A DNA stretch of 64,000 nucleotides, from assembly GCA_964291235.2 (NCBI GenBank), contig OZ219815.1, positions 128,001 to 192,000 on the forward strand. Reading direction: 5' to 3'. Both the position numbers and the translations under genes were made by a program. This document shows positions 31,597 through 48,252 of the stretch, one piece after another. The number at the start of each line of letters is the position of its first letter. Within the stretch, counting starts at the first letter, position 1. The DNA comes from Vicinamibacteria bacterium. Its GTDB lineage: Bacteria > Acidobacteriota > Vicinamibacteria > Marinacidobacterales > Marinacidobacteraceae. The notes below the pieces were generated by a model. It did not search any database and was not told the origin of the DNA. It saw nothing but the letters and a program-made list of their open reading frames with translations.

Positions 31597-31698
31597 CGCG
31601 CGTTGGCAACGAAATTGCAAGGACGTGACATCGCTTTACACCCGGACCTCCGGGTCCGGACGTGCGCCTCGCCTCACGATCCCGACGGAGGATTCTCC

Positions 31699-32874
31699 AT
31701 GCAGAAGAAGCTGCCAGCGCTTCGCGAAGTTTGCTCGCCGCCGGGCAGAAAGGCCCTGGCTCTCGCGGTCCTCGCCGCGCTTGGCGCCGTGGCCGCGACT
31801 CCCGTCCCGGCCGGCGCCGCACCCGGTCAGGATGCCCGCGTCATGGTGGACGCCCTTGTCCTCGACCGAGCCGGGAATCCCGTGCCCGGACTGGACATCA
31901 GCGACTTCGAGGTCATCATCGGAGATCGAGTCGGTCGGGTCACCGCCACCCGCACCGTGGCCGCCAATCGAGAGACGCGCCGCTTCGTCTTCGTCCTCAA
32001 CCGGAGGGGAGCACGCCCGGCCCAACTCCGCCGCATGAAGCAGGGGCTCGAAGAATTCGTGTCCGCGCGCTTCGGCGAGCAGGATGAAGCGCTCTTCGTG
32101 GACTTCGCCGAGGTGCCGAGAATCGCCCGGGGGTGGCGGACCGGCCCCGCCGAAACACTCTCCGAGGTCGGAAACATCACTCCGATCGGTTTCCGGAGCC
32201 CGGTCGGCCCGGCGGAGGACGCCGCCGATGCGGTCTTCATGCTCGAGGCGCTCGCCGGACGCCTGGCAGAGTTGCCCGGACGAAAAGTGGTCGTGCTCTT
32301 CTCCGGGAGCCTCAGCGCCTTCGTAGGCCAGGCGGGAGGGGATCTCGTAGCCGTCCGGAGTCCGCGAACGTGGCAGTCGAACGCGCCACCCGAATCGCGG
32401 GGAGGAACCGACGACGCGGCGCGGCCGCTCGCCCGCGCCTTCAACGCCGCGAACGCCTCCCTCTACCCGGTTCACCTTGAGGGCGTGCAACGGCAGGAGG
32501 AGGGCATCCTGGAGGCCAGCCGGGAGGAGTTTGTCGGGACCGCGCGGGACCAAAACGGCAGTGTGGTGGGCTTGCGGCGGGCTCGCGATTCCTCCGCCTC
32601 GCTATCCGGCCGAAGGAAACAGGCGTTCGCCCGGCCCGCGGACGACTTCCTCTCTGCTCTGGCGTCCGGGACGGGCGGCCTCTACACCGCCCAGGCGACC
32701 GATTTCGCCCGGATCCTGGACGGCATCGAAGCTTCCAACCGGCTCTGGTACGAGCTCAGCTTCGAGTCCTTAGGCTCCAACATACCGGGCCGCTATCAAC
32801 CCCACGAAGTCCGGGTCCGGAACGGTCGGGGCCTCCAGGTGATCGTCCGCCCGGGCCACGTGGTCCCGAACTGA
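31699..32874 (+). CDS. Acidobacterial-type VWA-domain protein (paralog 1)
   Basis: GGAGG SD, ATG 31699; signal peptide; VDALVLDRAGNPVPGL..SDF, PGRKVVVLFS, LASGTGG, YELSF, VRVR...V.VRPG. Confidence 0.8.
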   Translation: MQKKLPALREVCSPPGRKALALAVLAALGAVAATPVPAGAAPGQDARVMVDALVLDRAGNPVPGLDISDFEVIIGDRVGRVTATRTVAANRETRRFVFVLNRRGARPAQLRRMKQGLEEFVSARFGEQDEALFVDFAEVPRIARGWRTGPAETLSEVGNITPIGFRSPVGPAEDAADAVFMLEALAGRLAELPGRKVVVLFSGSLSAFVGQAGGDLVAVRSPRTWQSNAPPESRGGTDDAARPLARAFNAANASLYPVHLEGVQRQEEGILEASREEFVGTARDQNGSVVGLRRARDSSASLSGRRKQAFARPADDFLSALASGTGGLYTAQATDFARILDGIEASNRLWYELSFESLGSNIPGRYQPHEVRVRNGRGLQVIVRPGHVVPN

Positions 32875-32888
32875 GGCACCGCTCGGAG

Positions 32889-33944
32889 ATGCCTCGAATG
32901 TTCGGGAAATGCGTCCCGGCCACCGTTCTTGTTGCGGCGCTCTGCGCACCCGCCGTCTCCGCCGGCGAGGAAACCAGCGTCACGCTCGAGGTGCTGGTGC
33001 TCGATCCTGACGGAAAACCCCGCTCCGGCCTGACCGCCGACGATTTCCTCGTGACCCGGCACGGCCAGGAGCAGGCGCTACCCATCGTTGAGGAACAGGC
33101 CGCCGGGAAAGCGCCGCGACGGTTCGTGTTCGTGTTCAACCGCCGCGGCGCGGAGGCCGCGCAGCTCAGCCGGGCGCTCCGGGGGCTCGAGTCGTTCATC
33201 GAAGATCAAATGTCCGACTCGGACCAGTCCCTGTTCGCGGATCTGGGAGAGACCCTGCGAATCGGCCGTGCGTTCGGGCCGGGGAAACAGGTCGCGCGCG
33301 GGGGCCTGCAAACCATCCCGGCGATGGGATACCGAAGCCCCGCCGGGGCGACGGAAGACGCCGCCGCGGCGGCCGAGTTGCTGGTGTTGGTCGCCGAGCG
33401 TCTGGCCGCGACGCCCGGACGCAAGATCGTGGTGCTGTTCTCGGAGAGCGTCAGCAGCTTTTCGTACGCGTCGGAACAACCCGGCACGTTCAGGACGTCC
33501 AATGTAACGATGATTCGTCCCGGTGCGCGGGGCGAGACGGATGCCGGGCTTGCCTCGATCACCCAACGGTTGGTCGGGGTGCAGGCGACCGTCCACGTCA
33601 TCCACCTCGAGGGCGTGCGCGAGTACGACGAGCTGATCCTGACGGCCGAACGCGACCAGTCGAACCCGTTCCGAGCCTTTTCCTCCACCTCCTTCGAGGG
33701 CCGTTTCCGAACCGTCTCGCCGCGCAGTGGGGACGACATCCTGTCCAGCGTTGCCGCCGAGAGCGGGGGCCTTTATTTTGCCCGCGCCACGGGATTCCGG
33801 AATCCGCTCGATCGCATCGAGTCCCGCAATCGTGCCTGGTACCGGTTGACGCTGGACGGCGCCGGACCGGCCGCCGCCGCCTCGAGTGGCATCGAAGTGC
33901 GGGTGCCGGGCTGCGAGGACTGCCAGGTGCTGACCGGGCGGTAG
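32889..33944 (+). CDS. Acidobacterial-type VWA-domain protein (paralog 2)
   Basis: Signal peptide; VLVLDPDGKPRSGLTADDF, PGRKIVVLFSE, VAAESGG, WYRL. Confidence 0.78.
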   Translation: MPRMFGKCVPATVLVAALCAPAVSAGEETSVTLEVLVLDPDGKPRSGLTADDFLVTRHGQEQALPIVEEQAAGKAPRRFVFVFNRRGAEAAQLSRALRGLESFIEDQMSDSDQSLFADLGETLRIGRAFGPGKQVARGGLQTIPAMGYRSPAGATEDAAAAAELLVLVAERLAATPGRKIVVLFSESVSSFSYASEQPGTFRTSNVTMIRPGARGETDAGLASITQRLVGVQATVHVIHLEGVREYDELILTAERDQSNPFRAFSSTSFEGRFRTVSPRSGDDILSSVAAESGGLYFARATGFRNPLDRIESRNRAWYRLTLDGAGPAAAASSGIEVRVPGCEDCQVLTGR

Positions 33945-33993
33945 TCCGGCGCCGGCGAAGCCCAGAAGTCTGCGCCCTTCGTTTCACGGTACG

Positions 33994-35946
33994 ATGGCCC
34001 GGAGGTTCGACGTGCGCATCATGATCGGAAGGGCGGACGCCACCCGCTGGCGCCCGGTGCTTCTGGTGGCGTTCGGGCTCATCCTCCTGTCCTGCCTCGC
34101 GGTTGCGCAGACCTTCCGGTTCCGGGCCGCCACCACCCGCGTCATCGTGGACGTGCTGGTGCTCGACGACGACGGGACGCCCGTCTCCGGTCTCACTGCC
34201 GACGATTTCGAGTTGTCGGAGGACGGAGAGCCGCAGCGGGTCGCGAGCATCGACGTGGTGGACTGGCAGCGCTACGAGTTGGGGGAGGCCCTCCCCGCGG
34301 AGACCCCGGCGATCGATCTCGAACCCGCCGACGCCGGCAACGCCTCACCCCGCCGGTTCGTGATTGTGTTCAACCGCCGCGGCGCCGACCCGGTGAACCT
34401 CCGGCGCGCCAAGCGCGGACTCGAGGACTTCGTAGTCGAGCACATGGTGGACGGGGACGAGACGATGATCCTCGAGTTCGCCCACACCGTTCGCGTGCTC
34501 CAGGAGTTCTACTCGGGCAAGGAGCAGACGCTCGCGAACATCCGCCGGATCGTTCCCGGAACCTACCAAAGCCCCGTTGGACCCGAAATCGACGCCCGCG
34601 ACTCCTACGAGATGCTGTTCGCTCTCGCGGACGCGCTCGAGTCGGTGGAAGGGCGCAAGATCGTGGTCTTCCTCTCGATGAATCTCCAAACCTTCGCCGA
34701 CCCCCGGCAGGTCGTCGGCGAGATTGCCGGCACCGAAGTGGACCAGTTCCCCGGGCGGAGGGCGCTCGACATGACGCGCAGTCTCCGCGAGGCGATCCTC
34801 CAGTTGAATCACGCGAACGCCACCCTCTACGCGGTAGATCTGACCGGTGTGTACGGCAGCGAAAACGACATCCTGAACCCCAGCCTGAACTCCTTCGGCG
34901 TGCTCGGCAACCCGATTCCCGTGGAGCCCGACGATCATCCGCTCACCCGGATGGAGGCCGCCGCCCAAATCCCGGCGGAGGGCGGAGCCGCTTCGCTCGC
35001 GGTCGCCACCGGGGGGACCTACTTCCCGAACCAGACGAACTTCGCCGTCGCGCTCAACCGCATCGGCATCCAGAACCAGCTCTACTACCTGCTGTCGTTC
35101 TCGCCCACGAAGACGGACTTGGACGGCGAGTACCGGCAGATCGAGGTCCGGGTACGCGACCGGCCCGACCTGCGGGTGATCGCCCGGCCGGGTTACTTCG
35201 CGCGGCGCCGCGGCGACGTCGTCGAGGCGGCGGCCCGCGGCGACTACGGGTACGCCTTTCCCGAGGATCTGAACACCTACGCGTACCTCCTGAATCCCCG
35301 GCCGCACGGCGCCTTCGGAATGCTCGCCGCCGCCCTGCCCGAGTCCTACGTGGAGGAGCCCGCCGAGCTTCGGCTTCGGGTGGTGGGCCCGGGCGGGGCG
35401 GTGCTCACCGAGGCCGCCGGTCCGGTGGATTTCCGCCGCTTCTGGATCTCGACGCCCGCGGAACTGCCTTCGGGTGAACACGAACTCCAACTGACAGTCG
35501 AACGCGGCGGCGAAACCGTGCACGAGGGATCCTCGATGCTGACCATTCCCACCGCGTTCGGGGAGACCTTCTCGCTGTCGAGCGTCTTCCCGTTCGTCGC
35601 GGAAGAGCACGCTCCGGAGGCGGTCGGGCCGCCGGTGCGGCCGGTGGCCACCTTCGCCGGGGCGGAGGATGCGCGCGTCGCCTTCTTCATCTTTCCGGGA
35701 CGGGACGATCCCGTTTCGCAGGTCCGGGTCGCCTACGAGATCCGGAACGCGTCCGGCGAGATGGCGGTCGAAGCGGAGCGGCCAGGACGCTTCGATCTCG
35801 ACCCGGACCGCCCGGAAGGCACTCCCATCCTGCTGCCGCTCCAGACAGCGACGCTGAGGGCCGGCCGCTACTCCGCGGTGGTCCGGGTCACCGACGACAC
35901 CCGGAACCGTTCCGCGGTCGGCGAGTTGTCCTTCCTGATCCGTTGA
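33994..35946 (+). CDS. Acidobacterial-type VWA-domain protein with C-terminal Ig-like extension (paralog 3)
   Basis: FRAATTRVIVDVLVLDDDGTPVSGLTADDFELSEDGEPQ, EGRKIVVFLS, LAVATGG, YYLLSF, YRQIEVRV, ARPGYFA. Confidence 0.88.
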   Translation: MARRFDVRIMIGRADATRWRPVLLVAFGLILLSCLAVAQTFRFRAATTRVIVDVLVLDDDGTPVSGLTADDFELSEDGEPQRVASIDVVDWQRYELGEALPAETPAIDLEPADAGNASPRRFVIVFNRRGADPVNLRRAKRGLEDFVVEHMVDGDETMILEFAHTVRVLQEFYSGKEQTLANIRRIVPGTYQSPVGPEIDARDSYEMLFALADALESVEGRKIVVFLSMNLQTFADPRQVVGEIAGTEVDQFPGRRALDMTRSLREAILQLNHANATLYAVDLTGVYGSENDILNPSLNSFGVLGNPIPVEPDDHPLTRMEAAAQIPAEGGAASLAVATGGTYFPNQTNFAVALNRIGIQNQLYYLLSFSPTKTDLDGEYRQIEVRVRDRPDLRVIARPGYFARRRGDVVEAAARGDYGYAFPEDLNTYAYLLNPRPHGAFGMLAAALPESYVEEPAELRLRVVGPGGAVLTEAAGPVDFRRFWISTPAELPSGEHELQLTVERGGETVHEGSSMLTIPTAFGETFSLSSVFPFVAEEHAPEAVGPPVRPVATFAGAEDARVAFFIFPGRDDPVSQVRVAYEIRNASGEMAVEAERPGRFDLDPDRPEGTPILLPLQTATLRAGRYSAVVRVTDDTRNRSAVGELSFLIR

Positions 35947-37400: not shown

Positions 37401-38660
37401 TCAGTGGTCAACGGTGCGTAATGGCCGGTGTCGCCAGAGCAGCCAGTTCAGGAAGGTCGCCACCGCAGCCATCGCCACCACGATTCCAAAGGCCCCGTCC
37501 CAACCGTGAGCATCGATCAGATACCCCATCCCGACCCCCGTGAAGATCGCGCCCGCCGCTCCGATCCCGTCCACGATTCCGGAGGCGGAAGCCGAGGCTT
37601 TTGTCCCCCCGAAGTCCATCACCATGGCTCCCGACATCAGGGAATAGGGGCCGTAGAGCGTGAAGCCCACGAGCCCAAGCGCCGCTGCCAGCCAGAGGCT
37701 CTCCTCGGCCGGCAATCGGCTGAACAGGTAGATGGAGAGCGTGAGCACGACGCTCATGATCGCAAGCACCGGCCCCCGCCCGGCACCCACCCGGTCGGAA
37801 ACCCACCCGGCGGTTATGGAGCCCGCCGAACCGAGCAGCGGGAAAACTGCCGAGGCGGCGGCCGCGGCGCCGATCCCGGCGCCCGCCTGCACCAGGTAAT
37901 CCACCGACCATCCCCAGAAGGTGTAGCGGATCACGGAGAGCAACAGATAGCTTGTGCACATGATCCAAAACGCCGGGCTCGCCAGCATCCGGCGGCGCAA
38001 GCCGCCCCCCTGCCCGCTCCCGGCAACCGGATCGCGGAGCGTTTCCGGAGGCGCGGGAGCTGGCGGCGCGGCGGGCGGATCCGGCCGGATGAGGCGGTAG
38101 AGCGCGAGCCCGAGCAAAGCCAGCAGGCCGGCGTGCGCCCAAAAAAGTCCGGACCAGCCAAGCGCCACGACCAACACCGCGGCCGAAGCGCGGGCGGCGA
38201 AGTCGCCGAGCTGGTAGCTGATCGACATGAACCCCATCACCCGGCCGCTCTCCCGGCTGGGGTACCAGCGGGCCATGATCGGCATGATGGCCAGCCAGCC
38301 CATCGTCTGGAAATACGCGTTGACGCCCCAGACCGCGACGAAGAAGAGGAGTTCCCGGCCGAAACCGAAGACCGCGTTCATGAGCACGGAACCGAAGACG
38401 CCGATGAAGAACATCGCCTTGCCCCCGATGCGGTCACCGAGGAATCCGTTCAGAAGTTTCGACGCCGCGTACACCGCGAAGTACACCGACAGGATCAGCC
38501 CGGTCTCGGTGCTGGAATAGTCAAAGGCCTCCCCGATCAACGGTAGGGCCACCGGGAGCGTGACGCGGCCCAGGTAGTACCCCGCGTAGGCGACGAACAG
38601 GAGCACCGTCAGCAGCAGGCGCTGCCGCCCAAAACCCGGTGACTCCGCGACGCCCCTCAC
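37401..38660 (-). CDS. MFS transporter, organophosphate:Pi antiporter (GlpT/UhpC)-like
   Basis: YAGYYLGR, GFLGDR, WYPSRESGR, GWVSDR, ASGIVDG; about 12 TM segments. Confidence 0.85.
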   Translation of the reverse strand: MRGVAESPGFGRQRLLLTVLLFVAYAGYYLGRVTLPVALPLIGEAFDYSSTETGLILSVYFAVYAASKLLNGFLGDRIGGKAMFFIGVFGSVLMNAVFGFGRELLFFVAVWGVNAYFQTMGWLAIMPIMARWYPSRESGRVMGFMSISYQLGDFAARASAAVLVVALGWSGLFWAHAGLLALLGLALYRLIRPDPPAAPPAPAPPETLRDPVAGSGQGGGLRRRMLASPAFWIMCTSYLLLSVIRYTFWGWSVDYLVQAGAGIGAAAAASAVFPLLGSAGSITAGWVSDRVGAGRGPVLAIMSVVLTLSIYLFSRLPAEESLWLAAALGLVGFTLYGPYSLMSGAMVMDFGGTKASASASGIVDGIGAAGAIFTGVGMGYLIDAHGWDGAFGIVVAMAAVATFLNWLLWRHRPLRTVDH

Positions 38661-38749
38661 CTCAGCGCCCGCCGAGTTCGATCAATGCTTCCATCCGCGG
38701 GGGTGGGTCCCAACCGGTGCGTTCGGAGTGAGAAGAGGCCAGCCGCTAA

Positions 38750-38956
38750 CAGCCCGTGGACGAGGTGGCGTGAGCACCGAGGCCCCGCCGGGGCACTGCC
38801 CTGCAAGAGGTGCGGCTGACCCAGTTCTCGCGGCGGCGCCAGACAGAGGAAGCCCTGGCGTACTTCGACCGAAGCGCAACGACGAGTGAAGCAAGGGCAA
38901 GCGGTTCAGCCGGTATGTTTGTTGGTCCAACGCCACCTCACCTCGTTTACAGGCTG
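38750..38956. mobile_element. MITE-like element with CAGCC...GGCTG terminal inverted repeats at the left edge of the sterol cassette
   Basis: Left end CAGCCCGTGGACGAGGTG vs reverse complement of right end CAGCCTGTAAACGAGGTG (15/18); no credible ORF inside. Confidence 0.55.
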
Positions 38957-39169
38957 TTCTCGCCGTGGAGCCGCAGGGCTGGCGGCCTCTCAATTACACT
39001 AGCCCCGGTTGCGGGGGAGGAATGTGGGGGGAGGAGAGTCTTGGTTCCGGCTGACTCCAGCCGCTCCACCCCCTCCGTCCCGACCACCGCTGACGGGGAC
39101 GCAACGCCCGGGTCGCCTTCTTCATCCTCCGCAGGCGCGAAGATCCGGCGTCGCAGATTCGAGTGAACT

Positions 39170-40252
39170 ATGAAATCCGGAACCAGGCCAGGACCAGCCA
39201 TGCGGCCCACCGGGCAAATCCGTGAACTGTCCGATGGGCTGAGAAGCGCGTTCGACGGATCGAACGTCAAGGACCGGGTGCAGGACTTCGAAGGATGGAC
39301 CGACCGGGCGTCCCACGCAGATTCCACCCGGGAGTACGACCACACGCGGACCGTCAGGGAGTACTACGACCTCTGTACCGAGTTCATGGTCTGGGGCTGG
39401 GGAGAATCCCTGCACTTTGCGCCGCTGTCGCCTTTCGAGAGCTTGGAGGACTCGAAGATCAGGCACCAGAGAGTCATGATCTCCAAACTCGACCTGCGTC
39501 CGGACATGACGGTGATTGATGTCGGCTGCGGGATCGGCGGTCCGATGCGCCGCGTCGCCCGTGAGGCCGGAGTCAGGGTTGTCGGGATCAACGCCAGTGA
39601 AGTCCAGAGCAACAAGGCCAGGCAATTGAACACCGCTGCGGGACTCGATGACATGACCGAATGTCTGCAATGCAGCTTCATGGACATGAGTGCGATCGCG
39701 GACGAGACCTTCGACCGTGGCTACGCGATCGAATCAACCTGCCATGCGGCCGACAAGGTGGGCGCGTTCGCCGAAATCTACCGTGTCCTGAAGCCCGGAG
39801 CTCTCTTCTGGGGCCAGGAAATGTGCATGACGGACATCTACGACCCGGGCAGCGACCAGCAACGCGCCATCAAGCGGGAGCTCATGCACGGCATCGCGCT
39901 CAAGGACATCGCGACGTTCGGCGAGGTGCATCGGGCGCTCGAAACCGCCGGATTCGAAGTCGTGGAGGGGGCGGATCTCGCCATCGGTCAACAGCGTCCG
40001 CACACGCCGTGGTATCAGCCCATGGAAACGCGGCGCGGGCTGCCCGGGAGCACTTTCCGCCGGATTCCGGTGGGTCGCAGGGCGACGGGGTGGGGAATCA
40101 GGATAGCGGAGTTCCTCGGTGTGTTCCCGAAGGGCTCGGCGGAGGTGGTCGCACTGCTGGATCGGACCGCAAACGCCTATGTCGCGGGGGGCAGGACGGG
40201 AATCTTCACACCGCTTTACTGCTTCGTGGCGCGCCGGCCTCTTTCGGGTTAG
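39170..40252 (+). CDS. Sterol 24-C-methyltransferase (ERG6/SMT)-like SAM methyltransferase
   Basis: All SMT signature regions in order: YYDLCTEFMVWGWGESLHFAP (Region I), IDVGCGIGGP (II), YAIESTCHA (III), FAEIYRVLKPG (IV), PWYQP and C-terminal GGRTGIFTPLYCFVARRP. Confidence 0.85.
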   Translation: MKSGTRPGPAMRPTGQIRELSDGLRSAFDGSNVKDRVQDFEGWTDRASHADSTREYDHTRTVREYYDLCTEFMVWGWGESLHFAPLSPFESLEDSKIRHQRVMISKLDLRPDMTVIDVGCGIGGPMRRVAREAGVRVVGINASEVQSNKARQLNTAAGLDDMTECLQCSFMDMSAIADETFDRGYAIESTCHAADKVGAFAEIYRVLKPGALFWGQEMCMTDIYDPGSDQQRAIKRELMHGIALKDIATFGEVHRALETAGFEVVEGADLAIGQQRPHTPWYQPMETRRGLPGSTFRRIPVGRRATGWGIRIAEFLGVFPKGSAEVVALLDRTANAYVAGGRTGIFTPLYCFVARRPLSG

Positions 40253-40289
40253 CCCCGCCCACCTGGGGGCTCTTCCCCCCGCGCGCCCG

Positions 40290-43200
40290 TCAACCGGACG
40301 CCTCGCTGGCCAGTTCTCGCCGCGCCGAGGTCAGGCGCAGATGGAACGAGGAAAGCGCGGGCACCAGAAACACGATGAGGACCGTGGTGAAGACGATGCC
40401 GCAGCCGATCGAGGCGGAGAAGGGAACGAAGAACTGCGCCTGAATCGCGTCTTCGAGAATCAGGGGCGTGAAGCCGAGAAAGGTCGTCAGGGACGTCAGC
40501 ATGATCGGGCGGAAACGCCCCTTCGCACCCTCGATGATCGCGGTTCGCGCCGGGACGCCGTCCCGGAGTTTCTGATCGGTGAAATCGATCATCACCAGGG
40601 AATCGTTCACCACCACGCCGGCGAGGCCGAAGATCCCGACAAAGGATTGCGCGCTCACGGCTACCCCCAGCACCCAGTGACCCAGGATCACGCCGATGAA
40701 CCCGAACGGGATGATGGCCATGACGATGAACGGTTTGGTGTAGGAGCGCAGGGGGATGGCCAGCAGCGCGAAGATCATGAGCAGCGCGATCACGAATCCC
40801 CGATAGAGACCGCCCAGAGAGTCGAGTTGCTGCTGCTGTTCCCCTCCGAAGGTGTACGTGAGATCCGGGTTCTCGGCGATGAGCCCCGCCAGGATGGTGT
40901 TCTCGAGAATGTCATTGGCGGTCCCGGCGGAAATCACACTGGGATCGACGTCAGCGCTCACCGTGACCACGCGCTGGCCGTCCTGGCGCCGGATGGCCGG
41001 CGGGGAGGTGCCCGAACTCAGGGAAGCCACCCGGCTTATCGGCACGTCGGCGCCGGCTGGCGTCCGGAGCCGGTAACTTTCAACGTCGGTGATCGAGTTC
41101 CGCTGCTCCTCGGGCAGCCGGACGTAAACCCGAACTTCGTCACGTCCTCGCTGCACCCGGACGGCTTCCGCGCCAAAGAAGGCGGCTCGCGTCTGCCACG
41201 CAAGGTCGTCAAGCGTCAGGCCGAAGGTGCGCGCTTCGGGGAGCATTCCCACTTGGATCTCCGGGATGCCGGGAGTGTGATCCGAGCGGATGTCGAAGAC
41301 GCCGCCGACTCCGCCGAGATCTGCGACAGTGGAACTCGCGATCTCGTTGAGGCGTTCCGGATCCGGGTGGGACAGCGCGGCTTCGAGCGGGTTTCCCAGG
41401 GTGAAGATCTGGCTGAAGAAGGTGACCGCCCGCGCCTGAGGCAGGACACCCACCTCCTCACGCCATGCCTGGACGACATCTCCCGAAGTGATGCGCCGCT
41501 GCTGCGCACTCAGGAGCTTGAACTCGATGGTGGCGAGTTTGGCTTCCGGGTTCAGGGTGGGAGAGGGGTTGAGCCCCCCGGTCTCGATTCGAGACCGCCG
41601 ACCGACGACGACCGTAACGCCGGACAGCAGCGGAGGCGCATCCGCGGACCGGCCTTCGGAAAGCCGCTCGATGGCCCTGCGACCGGCCACTTCGAGTTCC
41701 TGCGCCACGGCGTACGTTTGCCGCGCGGTTGTGCCGTCCGGCATCTCGAGCGTGGCGATTGCGAAATCGCCTTCGACCTCGGTCGTGAAGACGGCCGGGA
41801 CGATGCCGGCGGGAATGAGCGAAACGCTCAGGATGAGCAGCGCCACGGCCCCCGAGACCGTTACCCCGGGCCAGTCCGTCGCGAACTGGATCCCGCGATC
41901 CAGCGGCCCTTGGACAAAGCTGTTCAGCAGTGAATCGACACGATTCTGGATTCGGGCGACGAATCGTTCGAAGCGCGTGCCGGGAACCCAATCCGGGCCG
42001 TGCAGATGATGGGACAGGTGGTTGGGCAGCACCAGCAGCGATTCGGCCAACGAAAACAGCAGCATGGCAATGACGATGATCGGCAGCGCCTTCCAGACCT
42101 CGCCGAACCCTGCAGGTATGAAGAGCAGGGGAACGAACGCCACGATCGTCGTCAGCACCGCGAAGATCAGCGGCACCTTGATGCGTCTCGCCCCCCGGAT
42201 TGCCGCCACGACCCCCTGCGCACCGCGCCTTCGTTCGAGGTGGATGTGCTCCGACACGACGATCGCATCGTCCACGACGATGCCGATGGCGAGTACGAAA
42301 GAGAAGAGCGACACCGCGTGGAGCGGAATGTCGAACACCAACATGGCGGCCAGCGCGCCGATTCCGGAAACGCCGAGACCGACGGCGACCCAGAAAGCCA
42401 GCCGGAGTTGGAGGAAAAGACCCAGCGCGAGCAGGACCAGCAACAGCCCCAAGGCCCCATTCTTGAGGAGTAGGGTGGCGCGCTCCACAAAGGTCGAAGA
42501 GTCGTCGAGCCAGATGTTGATGCCCACGCCGTCAGGGAGCATGGGGATCGCCTCGTTCGTGACGTAGCCGCGCACCGCGCGCGCCAAATCCATCACCTTC
42601 TCGCCGTCGGCTCGCGAGATGTCGACGAACACGGCAGGGTGGCCCTCGTGCCGGACGATCAGACCGGCGTCCTGGAAGCCGTCGCGCACCTCGGCAATGT
42701 CACCCAGGCGCACAACGGTGCCGTCGTCGTGCCCGAGGATGACGATGTCCTCGAAATCCTGCTGGTCGTAACTCTGACCGAGGGTCCGAATCCGCACCTG
42801 GGACTGCTCGGTATCGATGCTCCCCGCGGACAGGTCCAGGGAACCTCGGCGAATCGTATTGGCGATGTCGGTCAGCGTGAGCCCAAGAGCCCGCAACCGC
42901 TCCAGCGGCACCTCGATCGAGATCTCGTAGTTGCGCACCCCGCTGGTAGCGACCTGGGACACGTTGGGGAGCGCGGCGAGATCGTCCTCGATACGGTAGG
43001 CGAGTTCCTTCAGCGAGCGTTCGGGAACGTCGCCGTAGAGGATGAGGCGCATTGTGCTCTCGGCGTTCGTCATTTCCCGGATCTGCGGCCGCTCGGCACC
43101 TCCCGGGAAGGTCTGGATCCGCGCGACCGCCGACTCGATTTCATCCTTCTTGGCGTCCATGTCCGTCCCCGAGTTCACTTCGACCCTGACGGACGCCATC

Positions 43201-43493
43201 CCCGGGGCCGCTATGGAGCGGACCGCCTTCACGTCGGCCAGTCCCCGGACCTGATCCTCGATCTTGACGACGATGGCCTCCTCCACCTCTTCGGGCGTCG
43301 CGCCGGGAAACGGCACCGAGATTTCGAACTGGTTGAAGGGCACCGTGGGCCACCCTTCCTGCTCGAGGCCGGTCAGCGACACCAGGCCCACGGCGAGGAT
43401 GCCGAACATCAGCAGATTGGACGCGACGCCGTTGCTCGCCATGTAGGCGATCGGTCCGCGGGGTTCGGCGTGGTTGCCTCGGTCGGAACTCAT
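40290..43493 (-). CDS. RND efflux permease (AcrB/AcrD/AcrF family)
   Basis: FPGATPEEVEE, VRLGDIAEV, IGIVVDDAIVVSE, LTTIVAFVPL, GVVVNDSLV, RFRPIMLTSLTTFLGFTPL. Confidence 0.95.
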   Translation of the reverse strand: MSSDRGNHAEPRGPIAYMASNGVASNLLMFGILAVGLVSLTGLEQEGWPTVPFNQFEISVPFPGATPEEVEEAIVVKIEDQVRGLADVKAVRSIAAPGMASVRVEVNSGTDMDAKKDEIESAVARIQTFPGGAERPQIREMTNAESTMRLILYGDVPERSLKELAYRIEDDLAALPNVSQVATSGVRNYEISIEVPLERLRALGLTLTDIANTIRRGSLDLSAGSIDTEQSQVRIRTLGQSYDQQDFEDIVILGHDDGTVVRLGDIAEVRDGFQDAGLIVRHEGHPAVFVDISRADGEKVMDLARAVRGYVTNEAIPMLPDGVGINIWLDDSSTFVERATLLLKNGALGLLLVLLALGLFLQLRLAFWVAVGLGVSGIGALAAMLVFDIPLHAVSLFSFVLAIGIVVDDAIVVSEHIHLERRRGAQGVVAAIRGARRIKVPLIFAVLTTIVAFVPLLFIPAGFGEVWKALPIIVIAMLLFSLAESLLVLPNHLSHHLHGPDWVPGTRFERFVARIQNRVDSLLNSFVQGPLDRGIQFATDWPGVTVSGAVALLILSVSLIPAGIVPAVFTTEVEGDFAIATLEMPDGTTARQTYAVAQELEVAGRRAIERLSEGRSADAPPLLSGVTVVVGRRSRIETGGLNPSPTLNPEAKLATIEFKLLSAQQRRITSGDVVQAWREEVGVLPQARAVTFFSQIFTLGNPLEAALSHPDPERLNEIASSTVADLGGVGGVFDIRSDHTPGIPEIQVGMLPEARTFGLTLDDLAWQTRAAFFGAEAVRVQRGRDEVRVYVRLPEEQRNSITDVESYRLRTPAGADVPISRVASLSSGTSPPAIRRQDGQRVVTVSADVDPSVISAGTANDILENTILAGLIAENPDLTYTFGGEQQQQLDSLGGLYRGFVIALLMIFALLAIPLRSYTKPFIVMAIIPFGFIGVILGHWVLGVAVSAQSFVGIFGLAGVVVNDSLVMIDFTDQKLRDGVPARTAIIEGAKGRFRPIMLTSLTTFLGFTPLILEDAIQAQFFVPFSASIGCGIVFTTVLIVFLVPALSSFHLRLTSARRELASEASG

Positions 43494-43560
43494 CGGCAAG
43501 GGGCGGGGCGGATCCAGAAATGCGCTCGCGTGTCGGTCGCGCGGCTATCGGCCTCCGCGC

Positions 43561-45582
43561 TCACACGGGATTCGGGATTTGCGCGACCCGGAACTTCAGT
43601 TTCCGGTTCGGGGCCAGGGTCGGGAACGGATTGATGCCCAGCTTGTAGTTGTCGGGCGCCACTTCAAGCTGCAGGTGATACGCGATGAGCAGGACGTTCA
43701 CGGCCATCTGAAGCTCCACCCACCGATGGCCGAGGCACATGTGCGTACCCAGGCCGTAGGGCGCATAGGCGCCCGGTTGCAAATGTTCCGCCCGGTCCGG
43801 GAGGTACCGATCGATGTCGAACTTCAGGGGATCCTTGTACAAGTCATCGGAATAGTGCGGCACCGTCTGGCAAATCAATGCCATCGTCTTCGTCGGTATC
43901 CCGTATCCACTGACAACGCACTCGTTCATGACCGTTCTCAACTGCCAGGGAATCACTGGATACATACGCGAGGATTCCATGCAGAGACGAACCGTGACGT
44001 CGACGCTGTCGTGACTGAAATCATCGTCCTTCGGTTCACGACCGTTACCGAAGAGCGACTCCGCCTCACTACGGATCCTCGCGTACACCTCCGGGTTGCG
44101 AACCATGTTGTACACCGCGAAGGCGAGTCCGCTGCCGAGGTAGATGCTGGCAACCATGGCCGCCACGAACGGAAACGTAAGGTCGGTTTCGGGCAAGAAC
44201 TGTGGATCGCTCTTGTGGAGCTCGAGAAGCGCATCGGCGATGTCCCGGGGCTTCCCCTTGCGCTGGGCCGGCGTGTGTGATGCCGTGATCGCCTCCTGGA
44301 GGCTCTTGACATGCCTTCCGTAGCGTTTCATTCTCGGCGTGGACAGCATGAAATCCGGCAAGGCGCCCTGAACCCGCGTTACCAGCGCGCGGTGTTCAAA
44401 AGCCAGCAACTCGTCCACATAGTGGCTGCAGTCCACTCCCATCGTGAGGTGCGAGATCTGACTGCTGATGTGGTGTTGAAAGCTCTCGGTGCCGCGGAAG
44501 ATGTCCCCCTGTTGCCACCGGCCCAGCGACTTGCGGCAGTCGTCGATCAGCTCCGGTAGTCGCCGCGCCAACGTGGCCCGGGAATACGCGCTCTGGAGCG
44601 ACTTTCGCATTCGATAGTGTTCGGCCCCATCCATTCCCGGCAGGCTCCGGGAGGCTCCGAATGCACGTTCCAGCCGCTCGATGTAGTCCTTGGAACGGAG
44701 GTAGAATCGCCCGTGCTGGTTTACCCAGCGATTGACATCCGGACCCATCAAGGCAACCACCGGCGCACCCCGGATCTTGAAGGGCATTCGGACGACGGGT
44801 CCCTGTTGTCGGTAGATACCGTGCATCGCCTTCGGGATGTTGCCCGAAAGGAAATCACGTTCCCGCAGGACACCGAGGAATCGGAGCCGCGGAATGGGTT
44901 TGGTCCGGAGAACGCGGCGGGTCTTCGGCTTCGCGGTGCTGTCCTTCACGGCGGCGGCAACCGTCCGCCCGATGAGATCCAGCCTGGCTACCAGTTCGAT
45001 GCGGTCGAGGCGCTCGTCGTAGTCCTCTTCCTCGAGCAGCATCTTGAACCCGCCACAGGTGTGCATCAGGGCCACGAGGATCGCATCGCGCGGGTCGGGT
45101 ATCTCGTCGTTCAGGATGACGCTCAGGACTCTCGTCTTGGATTCGCCGCGGGACTCGGCGGCTTGGGCCGGGTAGGTTCCCGAATGGGAGACATCGCGAG
45201 AGAGGCCCCAGAATCCGCCGGTCTGGTGCGTGAGGATGTTCCGCTCCACCAGGCGGTCGAGCGTTGCCGCCACGATCTCGTCGGTGCGGCGCGCGTTTCG
45301 TTCGATCCAGAACTGGGCGTCCGATTTCTCATCGGACTCGGCGATGTCCTTGAGCGTCGGGTCGAGCAGGTCGTCGCCGGTCGGGGTGGGGTCCACCAGG
45401 TACAGCCGTTCCAGATCGGTCTCGATGCGCCGTTCCAGCGCCAGGTCGGCGAGCACCGCTCCGGCCATGACACAGGAGAAATCCCATCCCGGAACCATTT
45501 CCAGATAGCCGCTCTGCTCGTCGAGCATCAGGAGGATCAACTCCTCGGCGATGCGGATCGGGAACTGGGTAGCCGCGCTCAT
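43561..45582 (-). CDS. Fusion protein: N-terminal GPP34/GOLPH3-like domain + cytochrome P450
   Basis: GGAGG SD, ATG 45582. N-terminal IAEELILLMLD..SG, AGAVLADLALERRI, PTGDDLLD, LVERNIL, P.PRDA.LVAL (GPP34-like). C-terminal ESSR (ExxR), DPLKFDIDRY and PYGLGTHMCLG (heme Cys). Confidence 0.88.
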   Translation of the reverse strand: MSAATQFPIRIAEELILLMLDEQSGYLEMVPGWDFSCVMAGAVLADLALERRIETDLERLYLVDPTPTGDDLLDPTLKDIAESDEKSDAQFWIERNARRTDEIVAATLDRLVERNILTHQTGGFWGLSRDVSHSGTYPAQAAESRGESKTRVLSVILNDEIPDPRDAILVALMHTCGGFKMLLEEEDYDERLDRIELVARLDLIGRTVAAAVKDSTAKPKTRRVLRTKPIPRLRFLGVLRERDFLSGNIPKAMHGIYRQQGPVVRMPFKIRGAPVVALMGPDVNRWVNQHGRFYLRSKDYIERLERAFGASRSLPGMDGAEHYRMRKSLQSAYSRATLARRLPELIDDCRKSLGRWQQGDIFRGTESFQHHISSQISHLTMGVDCSHYVDELLAFEHRALVTRVQGALPDFMLSTPRMKRYGRHVKSLQEAITASHTPAQRKGKPRDIADALLELHKSDPQFLPETDLTFPFVAAMVASIYLGSGLAFAVYNMVRNPEVYARIRSEAESLFGNGREPKDDDFSHDSVDVTVRLCMESSRMYPVIPWQLRTVMNECVVSGYGIPTKTMALICQTVPHYSDDLYKDPLKFDIDRYLPDRAEHLQPGAYAPYGLGTHMCLGHRWVELQMAVNVLLIAYHLQLEVAPDNYKLGINPFPTLAPNRKLKFRVAQIPNPV

Positions 45583-45762
45583 CCTCTTCGACCTCCAGAT
45601 CGAGCGGCTTGAGGCCAAGCCACCAGCCCCTCTGGATGGTCCGGTTGAAATACTAGTCCATTCGCAGGCGGCCGGCGGGTCCGGATTCCCCTGGGATCAC
45701 GACCGCCATCCCCGATGGCGCGCGCCAGAAAGCTGGCCGCGCGCGTGGGTAGAGTAGAAGGC

Positions 45763-47142
45763 ATGGGTGAAGTGAAGGGCAGAACGCCGCGGAGGATTGC
45801 CATCGTGGGTGGGGGCGTCTCGGGCCTGGGGGCCGCCTGGGCGCTCCATCAGCATCCGGACCGCTTCGATTTCCGGCTGTTCGAAGCGCAGGCGCAGCTC
45901 GGCGGCAACGCGATCACCGCCGACATGCCGCAGGACGACGGAAGCACGATCCCGTTCGATATCTCCGTCACCGCCTGTATTCCGTCGGCATACCACCACT
46001 TTGTCCTGCTCATGCAGCAACACGGTATCGAGCTGATCGATACCCGGTTCAACTACAGCGTGAGGTATCGAGGCCAGACATATGCCCATGATTTCGACTC
46101 GGACATCAGGCGGCAGTTGCGGCCCGAAATCGAGAAGTTCCAGCGGCTCCTGAAACGTCTCCATTGGTGGGGGCGGCTCAACCTGTCCCGGTCCAAACTG
46201 CTCAGTGCATGCAATCCGTTCAACTACGTCAGCATGGGCGCGCTGTTGAACCTGGGCAGGTACTCGGGGGACTTCCGGTACAAGGTTCTGAAACCCATGT
46301 TCGTCAATTTCCTGATGGCGACGAACGTGTTCGACATGCCGGCGTCGCTCTTTTCTCGGTATCTGGATTTCTTCGACATCGAAACCGCGACGCCGATGCA
46401 GACGTGGGACCAGGGAACGCGGCGGATCTATCAGGAGCTCTCCGCGGCCTTCCCGGAGAAGATCTACCTGAACCGGCCCGTGCGAAAGGTTCACCGGCGC
46501 CGTACCGAAGTAGTCGTAGAGGACGAGAACGGTACGACCGAGACGTTCGATGACGTCGTTTTCGCGTGCAACGCGAACCAGACGCTGATGCTCCTGGACA
46601 AGCCGACGCGGCTGGAGGGTTGGCTCCTCTCCTCGATCCGGTACGAGAGCGAACTGCACAACCATACGGTCGTCCACTCGGACGCCTCGGTCCTTCCGGA
46701 TAATGAGGTCCAGCCATTGGCCACCCGGAGCAACCACATCGAGCAGTACGGTGCGAGGCCCGACAACTACGAAATCACCTACATCATGCACAACCAGCAG
46801 CCGTGGGCGAACAGGTCGGACAAGCCATGCCTCGTGACCTACAACCCGATCAGTCATATCGACGACAGCAAGATCGTCAAGAAGTGGTGGTTTCAGCACA
46901 TCGTGCACGACGTGCCTCACGTGACGTTTCTGACCCAGATGTTTCGCTTCGTTCAGGGCCGGAGGCGAACCTGGCACTGTGGCGCCCACACCCTGATCAA
47001 CAGCCAGGAGACCTGTTTCGTTTCCGGCCTCGTGACGGCGAGGCAGCTCGGAGCCGGCTACCCGTTCCAGGATCCTGAAGCCAGGAAATGGTTCAACTTC
47101 TACGGACGCGTGATGTACGGCTGGCGCTTCAAGGCCGCGTAG
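45763..47142 (+). CDS. FAD-dependent oxidoreductase (amine-oxidase fold; resembles the NAD/FAD-binding partners of lipid methyltransferases)
   Basis: RIAIVGGGVSGLGAAWAL, FEAQAQLGGNA, FDDVVFAC, VVHSDASVLP, QGRRRTWHCGA, ETCFVSG. Confidence 0.82.
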   Translation: MGEVKGRTPRRIAIVGGGVSGLGAAWALHQHPDRFDFRLFEAQAQLGGNAITADMPQDDGSTIPFDISVTACIPSAYHHFVLLMQQHGIELIDTRFNYSVRYRGQTYAHDFDSDIRRQLRPEIEKFQRLLKRLHWWGRLNLSRSKLLSACNPFNYVSMGALLNLGRYSGDFRYKVLKPMFVNFLMATNVFDMPASLFSRYLDFFDIETATPMQTWDQGTRRIYQELSAAFPEKIYLNRPVRKVHRRRTEVVVEDENGTTETFDDVVFACNANQTLMLLDKPTRLEGWLLSSIRYESELHNHTVVHSDASVLPDNEVQPLATRSNHIEQYGARPDNYEITYIMHNQQPWANRSDKPCLVTYNPISHIDDSKIVKKWWFQHIVHDVPHVTFLTQMFRFVQGRRRTWHCGAHTLINSQETCFVSGLVTARQLGAGYPFQDPEARKWFNFYGRVMYGWRFKAA

Positions 47143-48157: not shown

Positions 48158-48252
48158 GCGTACTGACCGGCATTCTCGCCCAAGACTCGTAGCTCCTCCG
48201 CCGCCCCACCCGGCGGATCTGAATTCCAGGTGATCGAACTTCGCTTCGAGCG

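Follow-up and report, generated by a model that had tools for sequence, protein, structure and literature searches.

Gene content of the SMT cassette

The window analysed here, 64,000 nucleotides of contig OZ219815.1 from a Vicinamibacteria bacterium, contains an intact forward-strand ORF of 360 aa (39170–40252) that encodes a SAM-dependent methyltransferase of the sterol methyltransferase (SMT) family. Pfam places class-I methyltransferase domains on residues ~57–283 and Sterol_MT_C on residues 295–357 (65 bits against a cut-off of 21.7), and Methyltransf_11 and CMAS are also matched. The CMAS match (62.8 bits, cut-off 27) recurs in all 120 close homologues and reflects likeness at the superfamily level; NCBIfam cyclopropane synthase models reach 37–54 bits against cut-offs of 390–650. 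The sarcosine/dimethylglycine N-methyltransferase model NF041675 scores 79.7 bits, far below its own cut-off of 550. These results bear out the preliminary description of the ORF as an SMT homologue and speak against the refuting outcome named there, a protein without Sterol_MT_C that sides with sarcosine methyltransferases; the C-terminal tail on which that description drew is readily recognised (...GIFTPLYCFVARRP). Translation probably starts at the second in-frame ATG, at 39200 (Met11), because the 120 closest homologues are mostly 345–350 aa long and cover 95–97% of the query. No Rfam family reached its gathering score within the window, and the 510 bp preceding the SMT gene gave a chance-level miRNA match only. 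We found no promoter-like site, and the single terminator-like site lies within chance expectation. A look for expression over 39170–45618 turned up no RNA data set.

The SMT gene is part of a cassette of ~11.9 kb that also encodes an RND pump with its membrane-fusion protein (MFP) and outer-membrane factor (OMF), a GPP34-P450 fusion, a flavoprotein and a KshA-like Rieske oxygenase. The RND inner-membrane efflux permease (AcrB/MexB type; 40290–43499, reverse strand; ACR_tran, 499.8 bits) is convergent with the SMT gene across a 37-bp gap, and among proteins of solved structure it comes closest to multidrug RND pumps. The MFP, the periplasmic adaptor of the system (48253–49473, reverse strand; HlyD_3, 49.7 bits), and the OMF (49470–51017, reverse strand; OEP, 128.9 bits) are encoded at the far end of the cassette.

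The GPP34-P450 fusion (43561–45618, reverse strand) is one ORF of 685 aa in which Pfam recognizes GPP34 (residues 23–225) and p450 (residues 244–665). It holds the only GPP34 in the genome, and in most loci single tblastn segments span both domains. The best solved relatives of the P450 part are CYP51 (2.3e-20), CYP24A1 and CYP46A1; in NCBIfam it matches terpenoid oxygenases, but weakly. The Rieske [2Fe-2S] oxygenase (47129–48250, reverse strand, start not fixed; Rieske, 55.3 bits) has a KshA-type C-terminal domain (KshA_C, 94.9 bits); no other full-length KshA_C match occurs in the genome, and the best solved relative of the oxygenase is KshA (4qdc, 2.3e-26). Similarity of the P450 and Rieske proteins to sterol enzymes is weak (76 and 96 bits, respectively). 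An SdmA model scores 35 bits on the Rieske oxygenase, below its cut-off of 600, and the cassette showed no partner of the sdmB type. An 818-aa Rieske ORF reaching 49585 was rejected as over-extended: the first ~470 residues run across the MFP gene in a different frame, and in every locus the homologues match residues ~470–818 only.

The remaining gene (45715–47142, forward strand) encodes a 475-aa FAD-dependent flavoprotein of the amine-oxidase family (Amino_oxidase, 62.6 bits, plus NAD_binding_8) with LkcE as its best solved relative (3e-26). In 27 loci, stop-free matches at 70–90% identity extend over most of the protein, and any match at all was found in 30. We discarded a 430-aa ORF on the opposite strand (45697–46989), a candidate cassette protein of unknown fold, as a shadow of the flavoprotein gene; the shadow frame is interrupted by 1–6 stops in 24 of 28 loci and has a GC3 of 0.58, against 0.83 for the flavoprotein frame. 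In NCBIfam, no cassette protein scored above any curated cut-off, nor did either of the two ERG4/ERG24 proteins of this genome.

Remodelling of the substrate pocket

We compared Region I of the window SMT (TEFMVWGWGESLHF, residues 70–83) with the canonical consensus TDFYEYGWGxSFHF, drawn from representatives at 50% identity. Yeast numbers were carried over via P0162, a protein that its source names as fungal sterol 24-C-methyltransferase, with offsets checked on expected residues; positions 333 and 341 were not mappable. The window SMT departs from the consensus by Y81M, E82V, Y83W and F89L, reading GWGESLHF in place of 84GWGxxFHF91, and further carries Gln at 223 (Y223Q), Met at 225 (W225M) and Ile at 249. 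Position 83 stays aromatic (Trp83); positions 81 (Met) and 223 (Gln) do not. The change of YE to MV singled out in the preliminary description is therefore real, as M81 and V82, but was understated, since Y83W, F89L, Region IV and position 249 are altered as well.

These substitutions are shared widely among the relatives of the window SMT. Met81 and Leu89 occur together in 112 of the 120 closest homologues (in the other 8 the search pattern took another site or none), and Y81M, E82V, F89L, Y223Q, W225M and Ile249 are common to the clade described below. Position 89 is Leu in all 31 clade rows and Phe in 76 of 83 non-clade rows, and Ile249 is found in 29 of the 31. Comparison of the clade with the canonical group (31 versus 79 rows) yields 13 separating positions. 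Four positions are aromatic in 67–96% of the canonical rows and replaced in 97–100% of the clade rows.

The catalytic framework is kept. Region II, the SAM-binding motif 125DxGxGxxGP133, aligns with query residues D117, G119, G121, G124 and P125, and every mappable SAM-binding residue is retained. The window SMT keeps 22 of the 23 mappable residues that are invariant in functional SMTs (Y74, T78, G84, W85, G86, H90, F91, D125, G127, G129, G132, P133, G147, Q154, D189, E195, G217, G268, W286, G352, F357 and P359), the exception being position 89.

Published mutagenesis helps to interpret these changes. According to a preprint (10.64898/2025.12.19.695621), 25 residues, F89 included, are invariant in all assayed active SMTs, and deviation from them may mark non-functional proteins. 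Since every functional SMT assayed to date has F89 in that account, no Leu89 enzyme has an activity published there. The same preprint quotes work on soybean SMT1 in which Region I aromatic-to-Leu changes lost the second methylation only. It further reports that any non-Gly residue at position 249, Ile included, abolished C30 products, that Ile also gave no C29, and that Chl_SMT, when mutated to Ile249, continued to form C28 sterols. The multiple methylation considered in the preliminary description thus sits poorly with the Region I and position 249 mutagenesis, which points away from it. Propylating (24-isopropyl-forming) SMTs are described in the preprint as having Gly249 with Phe at 81 and/or 83; the window SMT has Ile249, Met81 and Trp83.

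A separate clade under purifying selection

In a tree of 114 rows, built without an outgroup and rooted at the midpoint only, the window SMT is nested among canonical-motif proteins that include fungal and plant anchors, as expected of a member of the family. It falls in a 35-row clade with an SH-aLRT of 100, set off by a stem 0.75 substitutions per site long. Species-representative genomes contain 291 relatives of the window SMT, and the Met81/Leu89 clade occurs in MAGs whose labels name about eight phyla; the rewiring is accordingly the signature of a whole clade and not the peculiarity of one gene. SMT identity of 67–95% is retained across phyla, and dN/dS values of 0.18–0.32 in 10 of 10 pairs demonstrate purifying selection. 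In 4 loci, a canonical-type SMT lies 4–8 kb from the clade SMT. Judged from alignment and tree, the Met81/Leu89 clade is a separate, horizontally spread branch of the SMT family with a rebuilt substrate pocket. Among 32 metagenome contigs with relatives, identified by exact peptide patterns and so weak evidence, none is named as tested in the portions of published text consulted.

Linkage and mobility of the cassette

Across 80 SMT loci, a GPP34-P450 homologue was present in 64 (with at least 50% coverage in 62), the Rieske oxygenase in 50 and the flavoprotein in 30. In 31 of the 80, among them loci of Gemmatimonadota- and Gammaproteobacteria-labelled MAGs, the gene that follows the SMT immediately downstream is an RND copy of at least 80% identity. 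Seen from the fusion gene, an SMT lies within 7 kb in 31 of 77 GPP34-P450 loci; Region I is readable in 30 of those 31 SMTs and is of the Met81/Leu89 type in 29. At that share, the SMT is an optional addition to the module, not one of its obligate parts.

The cassette is horizontally mobile. It is wholly absent from the same site in two congeners (G082 and G127), where an esterase gene replaces the seven cassette genes and the flanks, ProRac-MFS and GGT-unk222, are retained. Cassette proteins share 70–90% identity across phyla, against 49–55% for SecA; in the same four cross-phylum genomes, the values are 82–83% for the RND pump, 70–73% for the SMT and 49–50% for SecA. GC content is 0.62–0.66 over 38–48 kb of the window and 0.66–0.71 elsewhere. 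No integrase or transposase was found near the cassette among the 38 window ORFs scanned with Pfam. At a Nitrospirales locus (L204), the sequence within reach held only a core of GPP34-P450, clade SMT and Rieske oxygenase, and the published two-SMT sterol cluster was not seen there.

Sterol pathway genes in carrier genomes

The genome of the window organism (3.45 Mb in 2 contigs, 90.3% complete) has no match to SQHop_cyclase_C (PF13243), SQHop_cyclase_N (PF13249), SE (PF08491) or FA_hydroxylase. With neither a cyclase nor a squalene epoxidase, this bacterium is without de novo sterol synthesis. It does carry two intact ERG4/ERG24 reductase genes, of which one is coupled to an SDR gene, and two genes of the SQS_PSY family.

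This pattern extends to other carriers. ERG4/ERG24 was found in 40 of 50 clade-bearing genomes and in 0 of 14 control genomes. Within the organism's own family, GPP34 occurs in 13 of 13 SMT-positive and 6 of 13 SMT-negative genomes, and ERG4/ERG24 in 11 of 13 and 2 of 13, respectively, a contrast that overstates the association because kin are not independent. We take the motif VTDCTAE to mark OSC and DxDDTA to mark squalene-hopene cyclase. An OSC-type cyclase (VTDCTAE) is present in 3 of the 50 clade-bearing genomes and absent from 47, and all 3 cyclase matches of ~190 bits carry this motif. A wider statement, that clade carriers are without any cyclase, did not hold: some PF13243 match was found in 34 of the 50 genomes and a strong, full-length one in 23. 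DxDDTA was read in 10 of 13 strong matches sampled for motif, and two strong matches (L123 and L126) have neither motif. Most Acidobacteriota relatives carrying the clade SMT have no cyclase of any kind.

A proposed role in tailoring exogenous lipids

In our preferred reading, to which we give an even chance, the window gene encodes a catalytically competent, SAM-dependent C-methyltransferase from a separate subfamily of the SMT family that serves a mobile cassette in the tailoring and export of an exogenous, presumably host-derived, sterol-like lipid. The assignment of a sterol as substrate draws on homology and context: with no squalene epoxidase or cyclase and yet two ERG4/ERG24 reductases in the genome, an exogenous sterol or sterol-like olefin is the most likely substrate, and it may come from a host sponge, a coral or food. 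The habitat itself is taken from relatives of the window organism. The retained SAM site and family core would support catalysis, and the aromatic residues that line the pocket for the sterol side chain have been replaced (Y81M, F89L, Y223Q and W225M, alongside E82V and Ile249). The oxygenases of the cassette may oxidize the lipid and the SMT would methylate it, probably once, after which the RND pump could deliver the product to the outer membrane or export it altogether. Weighing against this proposal are the lack of a known activity for Leu89 enzymes, the weak sterol likeness of the P450 and Rieske proteins, and the fact that LkcE, the only good solved relative of the flavoprotein, acts on a polyketide amide and not on a sterol. 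Strong cyclase matches in 23 of the 50 carriers, and the presence of an SMT near fewer than half of the GPP34-P450 genes, also count against it.

The strongest competitor, though still unlikely, is that the methyl acceptor is an isoprenoid olefin other than a sterol (squalene, a hopene, a carotenoid or a terpenoid of the host, for example) and that the family name is misleading. In Botryococcus, SMT-like enzymes add methyl groups to squalene and botryococcene, and the heavy rebuilding of the sterol pocket would fit such a substrate. So would the absence of OSC from 47 of 50 carriers alongside strong cyclase matches in 23, the pair of SQS_PSY genes and the weak P450 matches to terpenoid oxygenases. 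The DxDDTA cyclases in particular make a hopanoid or squalene-derived substrate possible in the lineages that have them. The gene is kept, however, in the window genome and in most Acidobacteriota relatives without a cyclase, and both ERG4/ERG24 and the KshA-type Rieske oxygenase belong to steroid-associated families.

We think it improbable that the pocket changes are functionally neutral and that the enzyme works as an ordinary C-24 SMT, converting desmosterol-type substrates into 24-methylene or 24-methyl sterols. The intact SAM-binding site and mostly intact core are what such an enzyme would have, and the Chl_SMT and soybean SMT1 mutants described above show that comparable changes can leave the first methylation in place. 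Neutral changes would, however, be expected to drift, and these are fixed across a deep, long-stemmed clade, in 4 loci with a canonical paralogue close by; F89 is, moreover, invariant in every SMT that the preprint describes as active on desmosterol or 24-methylenecholesterol.

We give little credence to the cassette as a route of steroid breakdown, in which a host steroid serves as carbon source, the attack on it falls to the P450 and the KshA-like enzyme, and the methyltransferase is incidental: the solved relatives of both oxygenases, which include KshA and side-chain-hydroxylating P450s, suggest it, but these likenesses are distant, the genome has a single full-length KshA_C match, and neither an efflux pump nor a methyltransferase is expected in catabolism. 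Least credible of all is a catalytically dead or binding-only relic, an idea that the preprint's link between deviation and possible non-function invites, since Region II, E195 and H90 are intact, selection is purifying, identity is maintained across phyla and enzyme partners travel along.

Wider implications

A more speculative proposal concerns the clade as a whole. That proposal, which we regard as doubtful, would make the clade an SMT with a new substrate or regiochemistry (for example, methylation at C-26 or C-27, or on a side chain first oxidized by the partner P450 or Rieske oxygenase) inside a mobile cassette for uptake, tailoring and export of host sterols in sponge and coral symbionts under about eight phylum labels. 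If it were true, the unconventional sterols of sponges would owe something to bacteria that have no sterol pathway, and precursors of the 26-methyl and other C30+ sterane biomarkers would be among these contributions. Steranes alkylated at C-24 and C-26 are used to date the earliest animals, and such dating hinges on which organisms alkylate sterol side chains.

The subfamily is abundant in symbiont MAGs, mostly in genomes unable to make sterols. Because most carriers are of this kind, the subfamily would be missed by surveys that equate 'sterol producer' with OSC. Treating it as an ordinary C-24 SMT could be wrong too.

Comparison with known systems

Eukaryotic Erg6, SMT1 and SMT2, represented by the fungal anchor P0162 and the rice SMT1-like anchor P0127, are ~34–41% identical to the window SMT over their full length and have the same domain order and motifs. 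They differ in that the window SMT lies in a separate, long-stemmed clade in which four near-invariant pocket aromatics are replaced, and in that its carrier is a bacterium lacking a sterol pathway.

Bacterial SMTs with demonstrated activity, from sponge-symbiont and environmental metagenomes, are on record (Brown et al. 2023, PMC10070321), in agreement with the preliminary description; in that paper some symbiont SMTs are active and the enzymes of C-26 methylation are still unknown. The functional bacterial enzymes (PMC10070321; Brown & Welander 2025) share with the window SMT the architecture of class-I methyltransferase plus Sterol_MT_C, the SAM motif, E195, H90 and F357/P359, and relatives of the window SMT lie on contigs prefixed LXNI, LXNJ and JGIcombinedJ30088, which are prefixes of published sponge metagenomes. 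The published functional enzymes nevertheless keep 84GWGxxFHF91, whereas the window SMT has L89 plus M81, V82, Q223, M225 and I249; since all of them keep F89, they are not evidence for activity of the Leu89 variant. Their genes, moreover, are often described beside OSC, CYP51, ERG24 or sdmAB, in contrast to the window gene, which stands beside the cassette in a genome without OSC.

The Rieske and KshA_C domains of KshA and SdmA are also found in the cassette oxygenase, although its sequence match to KshA covers the N-terminal half only. In symbiont MAGs from Ircinia, enrichment of SMT1/ERG6 and ERG24, purifying selection and horizontal transfer have been described (Kelly et al. 2022, PMC9531527). 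The core cluster reported there, ERG24-CYP51-LSS, implies de novo synthesis; the window cassette has none of these genes and its genome is without LSS.

The GPP34-P450 gene has exactly the architecture of GPP34_L (GPP34 plus cytochrome P450), which was reported to be exclusive to sponge symbionts and proposed to bind PI4P and to aid evasion of phagocytosis (Microbiome 2025, PMC11706023). The words 'sterol' and 'methyltransferase' have 0 occurrences in the main text of that paper, and no searchable paper connects GPP34 with a sterol methyltransferase. What sets the window fusion apart from that account is that it is linked to an SMT, to a Rieske oxygenase of steroid type and to a pump of lipid type; this linkage points to a role in lipid tailoring. 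If the proposal for the clade is correct, GPP34-P450 would act in lipid tailoring and not as a phagosome decoy. The cassette also offers a testable biochemical context for a protein that the published account reads only as a host-interaction factor.

A predicted sterol methyltransferase with a rebuilt pocket

We predict that the gene at 39170-40252 (+) encodes a member of the sterol methyltransferase (SMT) family whose pocket has been rebuilt. It lies on a mobile cassette, probably for tailoring and export, found in symbiont bacteria most of which are unable to make sterols. The 360-aa open frame, which contains TEFMVWGWGESLHF, had been described as an SMT-family homologue, and Pfam bears this out: Sterol_MT_C matches residues 295-357 at 65 bits (cut-off 21.7), and residues ~57-283 match CMAS and generic class-I methyltransferase domains. 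The best NCBIfam model is that of sarcosine/dimethylglycine N-methyltransferase, yet the query scores 79.7 bits against the 550 it asks for, so this alternative fails; no NCBIfam model was matched at cut-off. A sequence search of solved chains returned no true SMT structure, the best match being the methyltransferase 3bus (7e-22), and according to the available part of a preprint (Brown & Welander, 10.64898/2025.12.19.695621) an SMT structure has yet to be reported. The true start is probably the second ATG, at 39200, because most of the 120 closest homologues have a length of 345-350 aa and align to 95-97% of the query. Compared pairwise with ten homologues of 69-94% identity, the gene has a dN/dS of 0.18-0.32. 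The non-coding stretch 5' of the gene (38661-39169) is unusually long (510 bp); it has no Rfam match, and a simple scan found no promoter-like site in it.

Yeast Erg6 numbering was transferred without the yeast sequence itself, via two anchors named by their source, a fungal sterol 24-C-methyltransferase (P0162) and a rice SMT1-like protein (P0127), and the offsets reproduce the expected residues. The accessible text of the preprint names 25 residues shared by every SMT active in its assays; the query keeps 22 of the 23 that could be mapped, the sole exception being F89, which is Leu. Its product-steering positions hold Met81, Val82, Trp83 and Ile249. We contrasted 31 core rows of the query's branch (the Met81/Leu89 clade) with 79 canonical rows column by column, calling a position discriminating when at least 90% fixed in the clade, unlike the canonical consensus, and when no more than 8% of canonical rows had the clade residue. 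Thirteen positions qualified, Y81M, F89L, Y223Q and W225M among them. The preliminary description's change of YE to MV in Region I is therefore correct but incomplete, since the residues at 81, 89, 223 and 225, where 67-96% of canonical rows carry an aromatic side chain, have all been replaced, F89L, Y223Q, W225M and others having changed as well. According to the same portion of the preprint, every functional SMT assayed keeps F89, and thus it holds published activity for no Leu89 enzyme; its authors suggest that deviating SMTs are perhaps non-functional or need other substrates (10.64898/2025.12.19.695621).

The altered pocket belongs to a whole clade

Met81 and Leu89 occur together in 112 of the 120 closest homologues; in the other 8 the pattern matched another site or none. 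The clade consensus for Region I is [STNG][EDG][FL]M[VI][FWLM]GWGESLHF, and a set of 150 representatives at 50% identity is dominated by the canonical type, TDFYEYGWGxSFHF. For a maximum-likelihood tree (114 rows) we used the query, every fourth close homologue past a length filter, two further proteins (P0122 and P0123) and full-length representatives (315-420 aa with a recognisable Region I), leaving out 90 close homologues and any representatives that were shorter or longer or lacked the motif. In this tree, which has no outgroup, the Met81/Leu89 sequences form one 35-row group (SH-aLRT 100), whose stem measures 0.75 substitutions per site and whose internal branches are very short. The pocket change is a feature of the whole clade and not a one-off of the window gene.

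Distant clade members (about 50-63% identity) also replace G86, by Asn or Asp. The Asn form (for example ...MQFGWNESLHF) was seen at loci L153, L171, L174, L183-L190 and L214, labelled Gammaproteobacteria and Rhodothermales, where SMT identity is 51-63% and the GPP34-P450 gene is still adjacent. In four Chloroflexota loci (L046, L058, L061 and L062) a canonical-type SMT and the clade SMT lie 4-8 kb apart, an arrangement that speaks for separate functions of the two types. Region I of the second SMT there is TDFYEYGWGRSFHF or TDFYEFGWGKSFHF, and the genomes of these loci have no oxidosqualene cyclase (OSC)-type match. Relatives at 57-93% identity also lie on 32 metagenome contigs, some bearing prefixes that Brown et al. 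(PMC10070321, in the sections available) use for Sarcotragus, Petrosia and Aplysina metagenomes.

The SMT is part of a proposed tailoring-and-export cassette

The SMT is convergent with a set of minus-strand genes: an RND permease (40290-43499), a GPP34-P450 fusion (43561-45618), a Rieske/KshA_C oxygenase (about 47129-48250), a HlyD-type membrane-fusion adaptor (48253-49473) and an outer-membrane factor (49470-51017). The seventh gene encodes a 475-aa amine-oxidase-family flavoprotein (45715-47142, +), whose frame has a GC3 of 0.83 and stop-free matches in 27 loci (70-90% identity over most of the length). Among solved structures, the P450 part is closest to CYP51, CYP24A1 and CYP46A1 (2e-20 to 6e-17) and the Rieske protein to KshA (2e-26), and LkcE is the only substantial relative of the flavoprotein. 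The Rieske protein was rejected as an SdmA orthologue (35 bits against a cut-off of 600).

Two open frames were discarded. A 430-aa ORF without a family match (45697-46989, −) is an antisense shadow of the flavoprotein gene, its homologous frames holding 1-6 stops in 24 of 28 loci; its tblastn 'conservation' (43-70%) is misleading, long false ORFs being typical of high-GC genomes. An 818-aa Rieske ORF (47129-49585, −) is over-extended: it is conserved elsewhere only over its last ~350 residues, and its 5' part overlaps the adaptor gene in another frame. Elsewhere in the window, three consecutive genes without a Pfam match (31603-35946, +; 423, 351 and 650 aa) cross-match at 31-44% identity as a local paralogue family; congeners have conserved it, in the same flanking context.

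We retrieved 80 loci with the SMT from species-representative genomes. The GPP34-P450 fusion was present in 64 (62 at half coverage or more), the Rieske gene in 50 and the flavoprotein in 30. In 31 loci the SMT was followed immediately downstream by an RND gene of at least 80% identity; the labels of these loci are Acidobacteriota, Gemmatimonadota, Gammaproteobacteria or Latescibacterota, and no Chloroflexota locus is among them. In the reverse direction, 77 loci retrieved with the fusion protein contained the Rieske gene 44 times, the RND gene 44 times and the flavoprotein 25 times. The SMT is a frequent accessory, not an obligate member, of this broader GPP34-P450, Rieske and pump module, because it lay within 7 kb in only 31 of the 77; where Region I could be read, 29 of 30 were of the Met81/Leu89 type.

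The cassette is mobile

The cassette is mobile. Four genomes labelled Gemmatimonadota or Gammaproteobacteria share 82-83% identity with the window's RND pump and 70-73% with its SMT, and 49-50% in SecA. Of 151 genomes sampled from the window's class, 15 have Sterol_MT_C; besides the window's own, these comprise 13 of the 26 other members of its family and 1 of 124 genomes outside it. In two near-complete, SMT-free congeners (G082 and G127) both flanks of the site are preserved, one with proline racemase and MFS genes and the other with gamma-glutamyltranspeptidase plus a 222-aa ORF, and a single esterase-family gene (576-596 aa; L219:11009-12739 and L220:7760-9550, respectively) stands in place of the seven cassette genes. 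GC falls to 0.62-0.66 at 38001-48000, against 0.66-0.71 elsewhere in the window, a drop that matches the position of the cassette. Among 38 window ORFs scanned with Pfam, none near the cassette was an integrase or transposase.

Sterol genes and the likely substrate

In the window's genome (3.45 Mb in 2 contigs, 90.3% complete) there is a single Sterol_MT_C gene and, at that completeness, no match to either cyclase domain, squalene epoxidase or the ERG3/ERG25-type hydroxylase family. The genome does have two SQS_PSY genes and two intact ERG4/ERG24-family reductase genes, and the cassette contains its only GPP34 domain and only full-length KshA_C match. At G000:C1:293738-295599 (L121:5739-7600), the start of the first reductase gene overlaps by 4 bases the end of an upstream short-chain dehydrogenase gene, and a DUF1214 protein follows; this is possibly a second sterol-modifying unit away from the cassette. 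The second reductase gene lies on the other contig (G000:C2; L122:6635-7774).

We also examined 50 other clade-bearing genomes, picked from the 80 for their long contigs, and 34 of them had a cyclase-domain match of some kind. Of the 22 genomes in the strong group (376-490 bits), 11 were sampled, 9 having DxDDTA and 2 neither motif; a 78.7-bit match in G012 also had DxDDTA, and all three ~190-bit matches had VTDCTAE. We take DxDDTA to mark squalene-hopene cyclases and VTDCTAE oxidosqualene cyclases; on that assumption, a putative OSC-type cyclase occurs in 3 of the 50, since all three ~190-bit matches have VTDCTAE. The carriers (G036, L134; G017, L135; G032, L221), two labelled Dehalococcoidia and one Longimicrobiales, may therefore make their own sterols. 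The cyclase frame of G017 is unusually long (965-1167 aa).

ERG4/ERG24 was found in 40 of the 50 clade-bearing genomes versus 0 of 14 control genomes. Within the window's family, GPP34 and ERG4/ERG24 occurred in 13/13 and 11/13 SMT-positive genomes and in 6/13 and 2/13 SMT-negative ones, a pattern rather than a test because kin are non-independent. These results fit a cassette that tailors an exogenous sterol-like lipid, gene content and the P450 and Rieske likenesses not being proof of a sterol substrate.

Comparison with known systems

A full-text literature search found no paper joining 'GPP34' and 'sterol methyltransferase', and a search for recent work on 26-methyl sterol methyltransferases gave, among the records listed, nothing characterising the Met81/Leu89 clade. 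In the parts available, Brown et al. (2023, PMC10070321) demonstrated activity for bacterial SMTs, three of which propylate, and noted that C-26 methyltransferases were still unidentified. GPP34+P450 proteins were described, in the portion available, as occurring only in sponge symbionts, with a proposed role in evading phagocytosis (Microbiome 2025, PMC11706023); the main text of that paper uses neither 'sterol' nor 'methyltransferase'. Two fusion copies, flanking the SMT and RND genes in L022 and in tandem in L069, are consistent with the several copies per genome given in that portion. SMT1/ERG6 and ERG24 were enriched in sponge MAGs (Kelly et al. 2022, PMC9531527, available part), and Brown et al., in the same sections, remarked on sterol reductases and possible host-sterol modification in bacteria without a sterol pathway.
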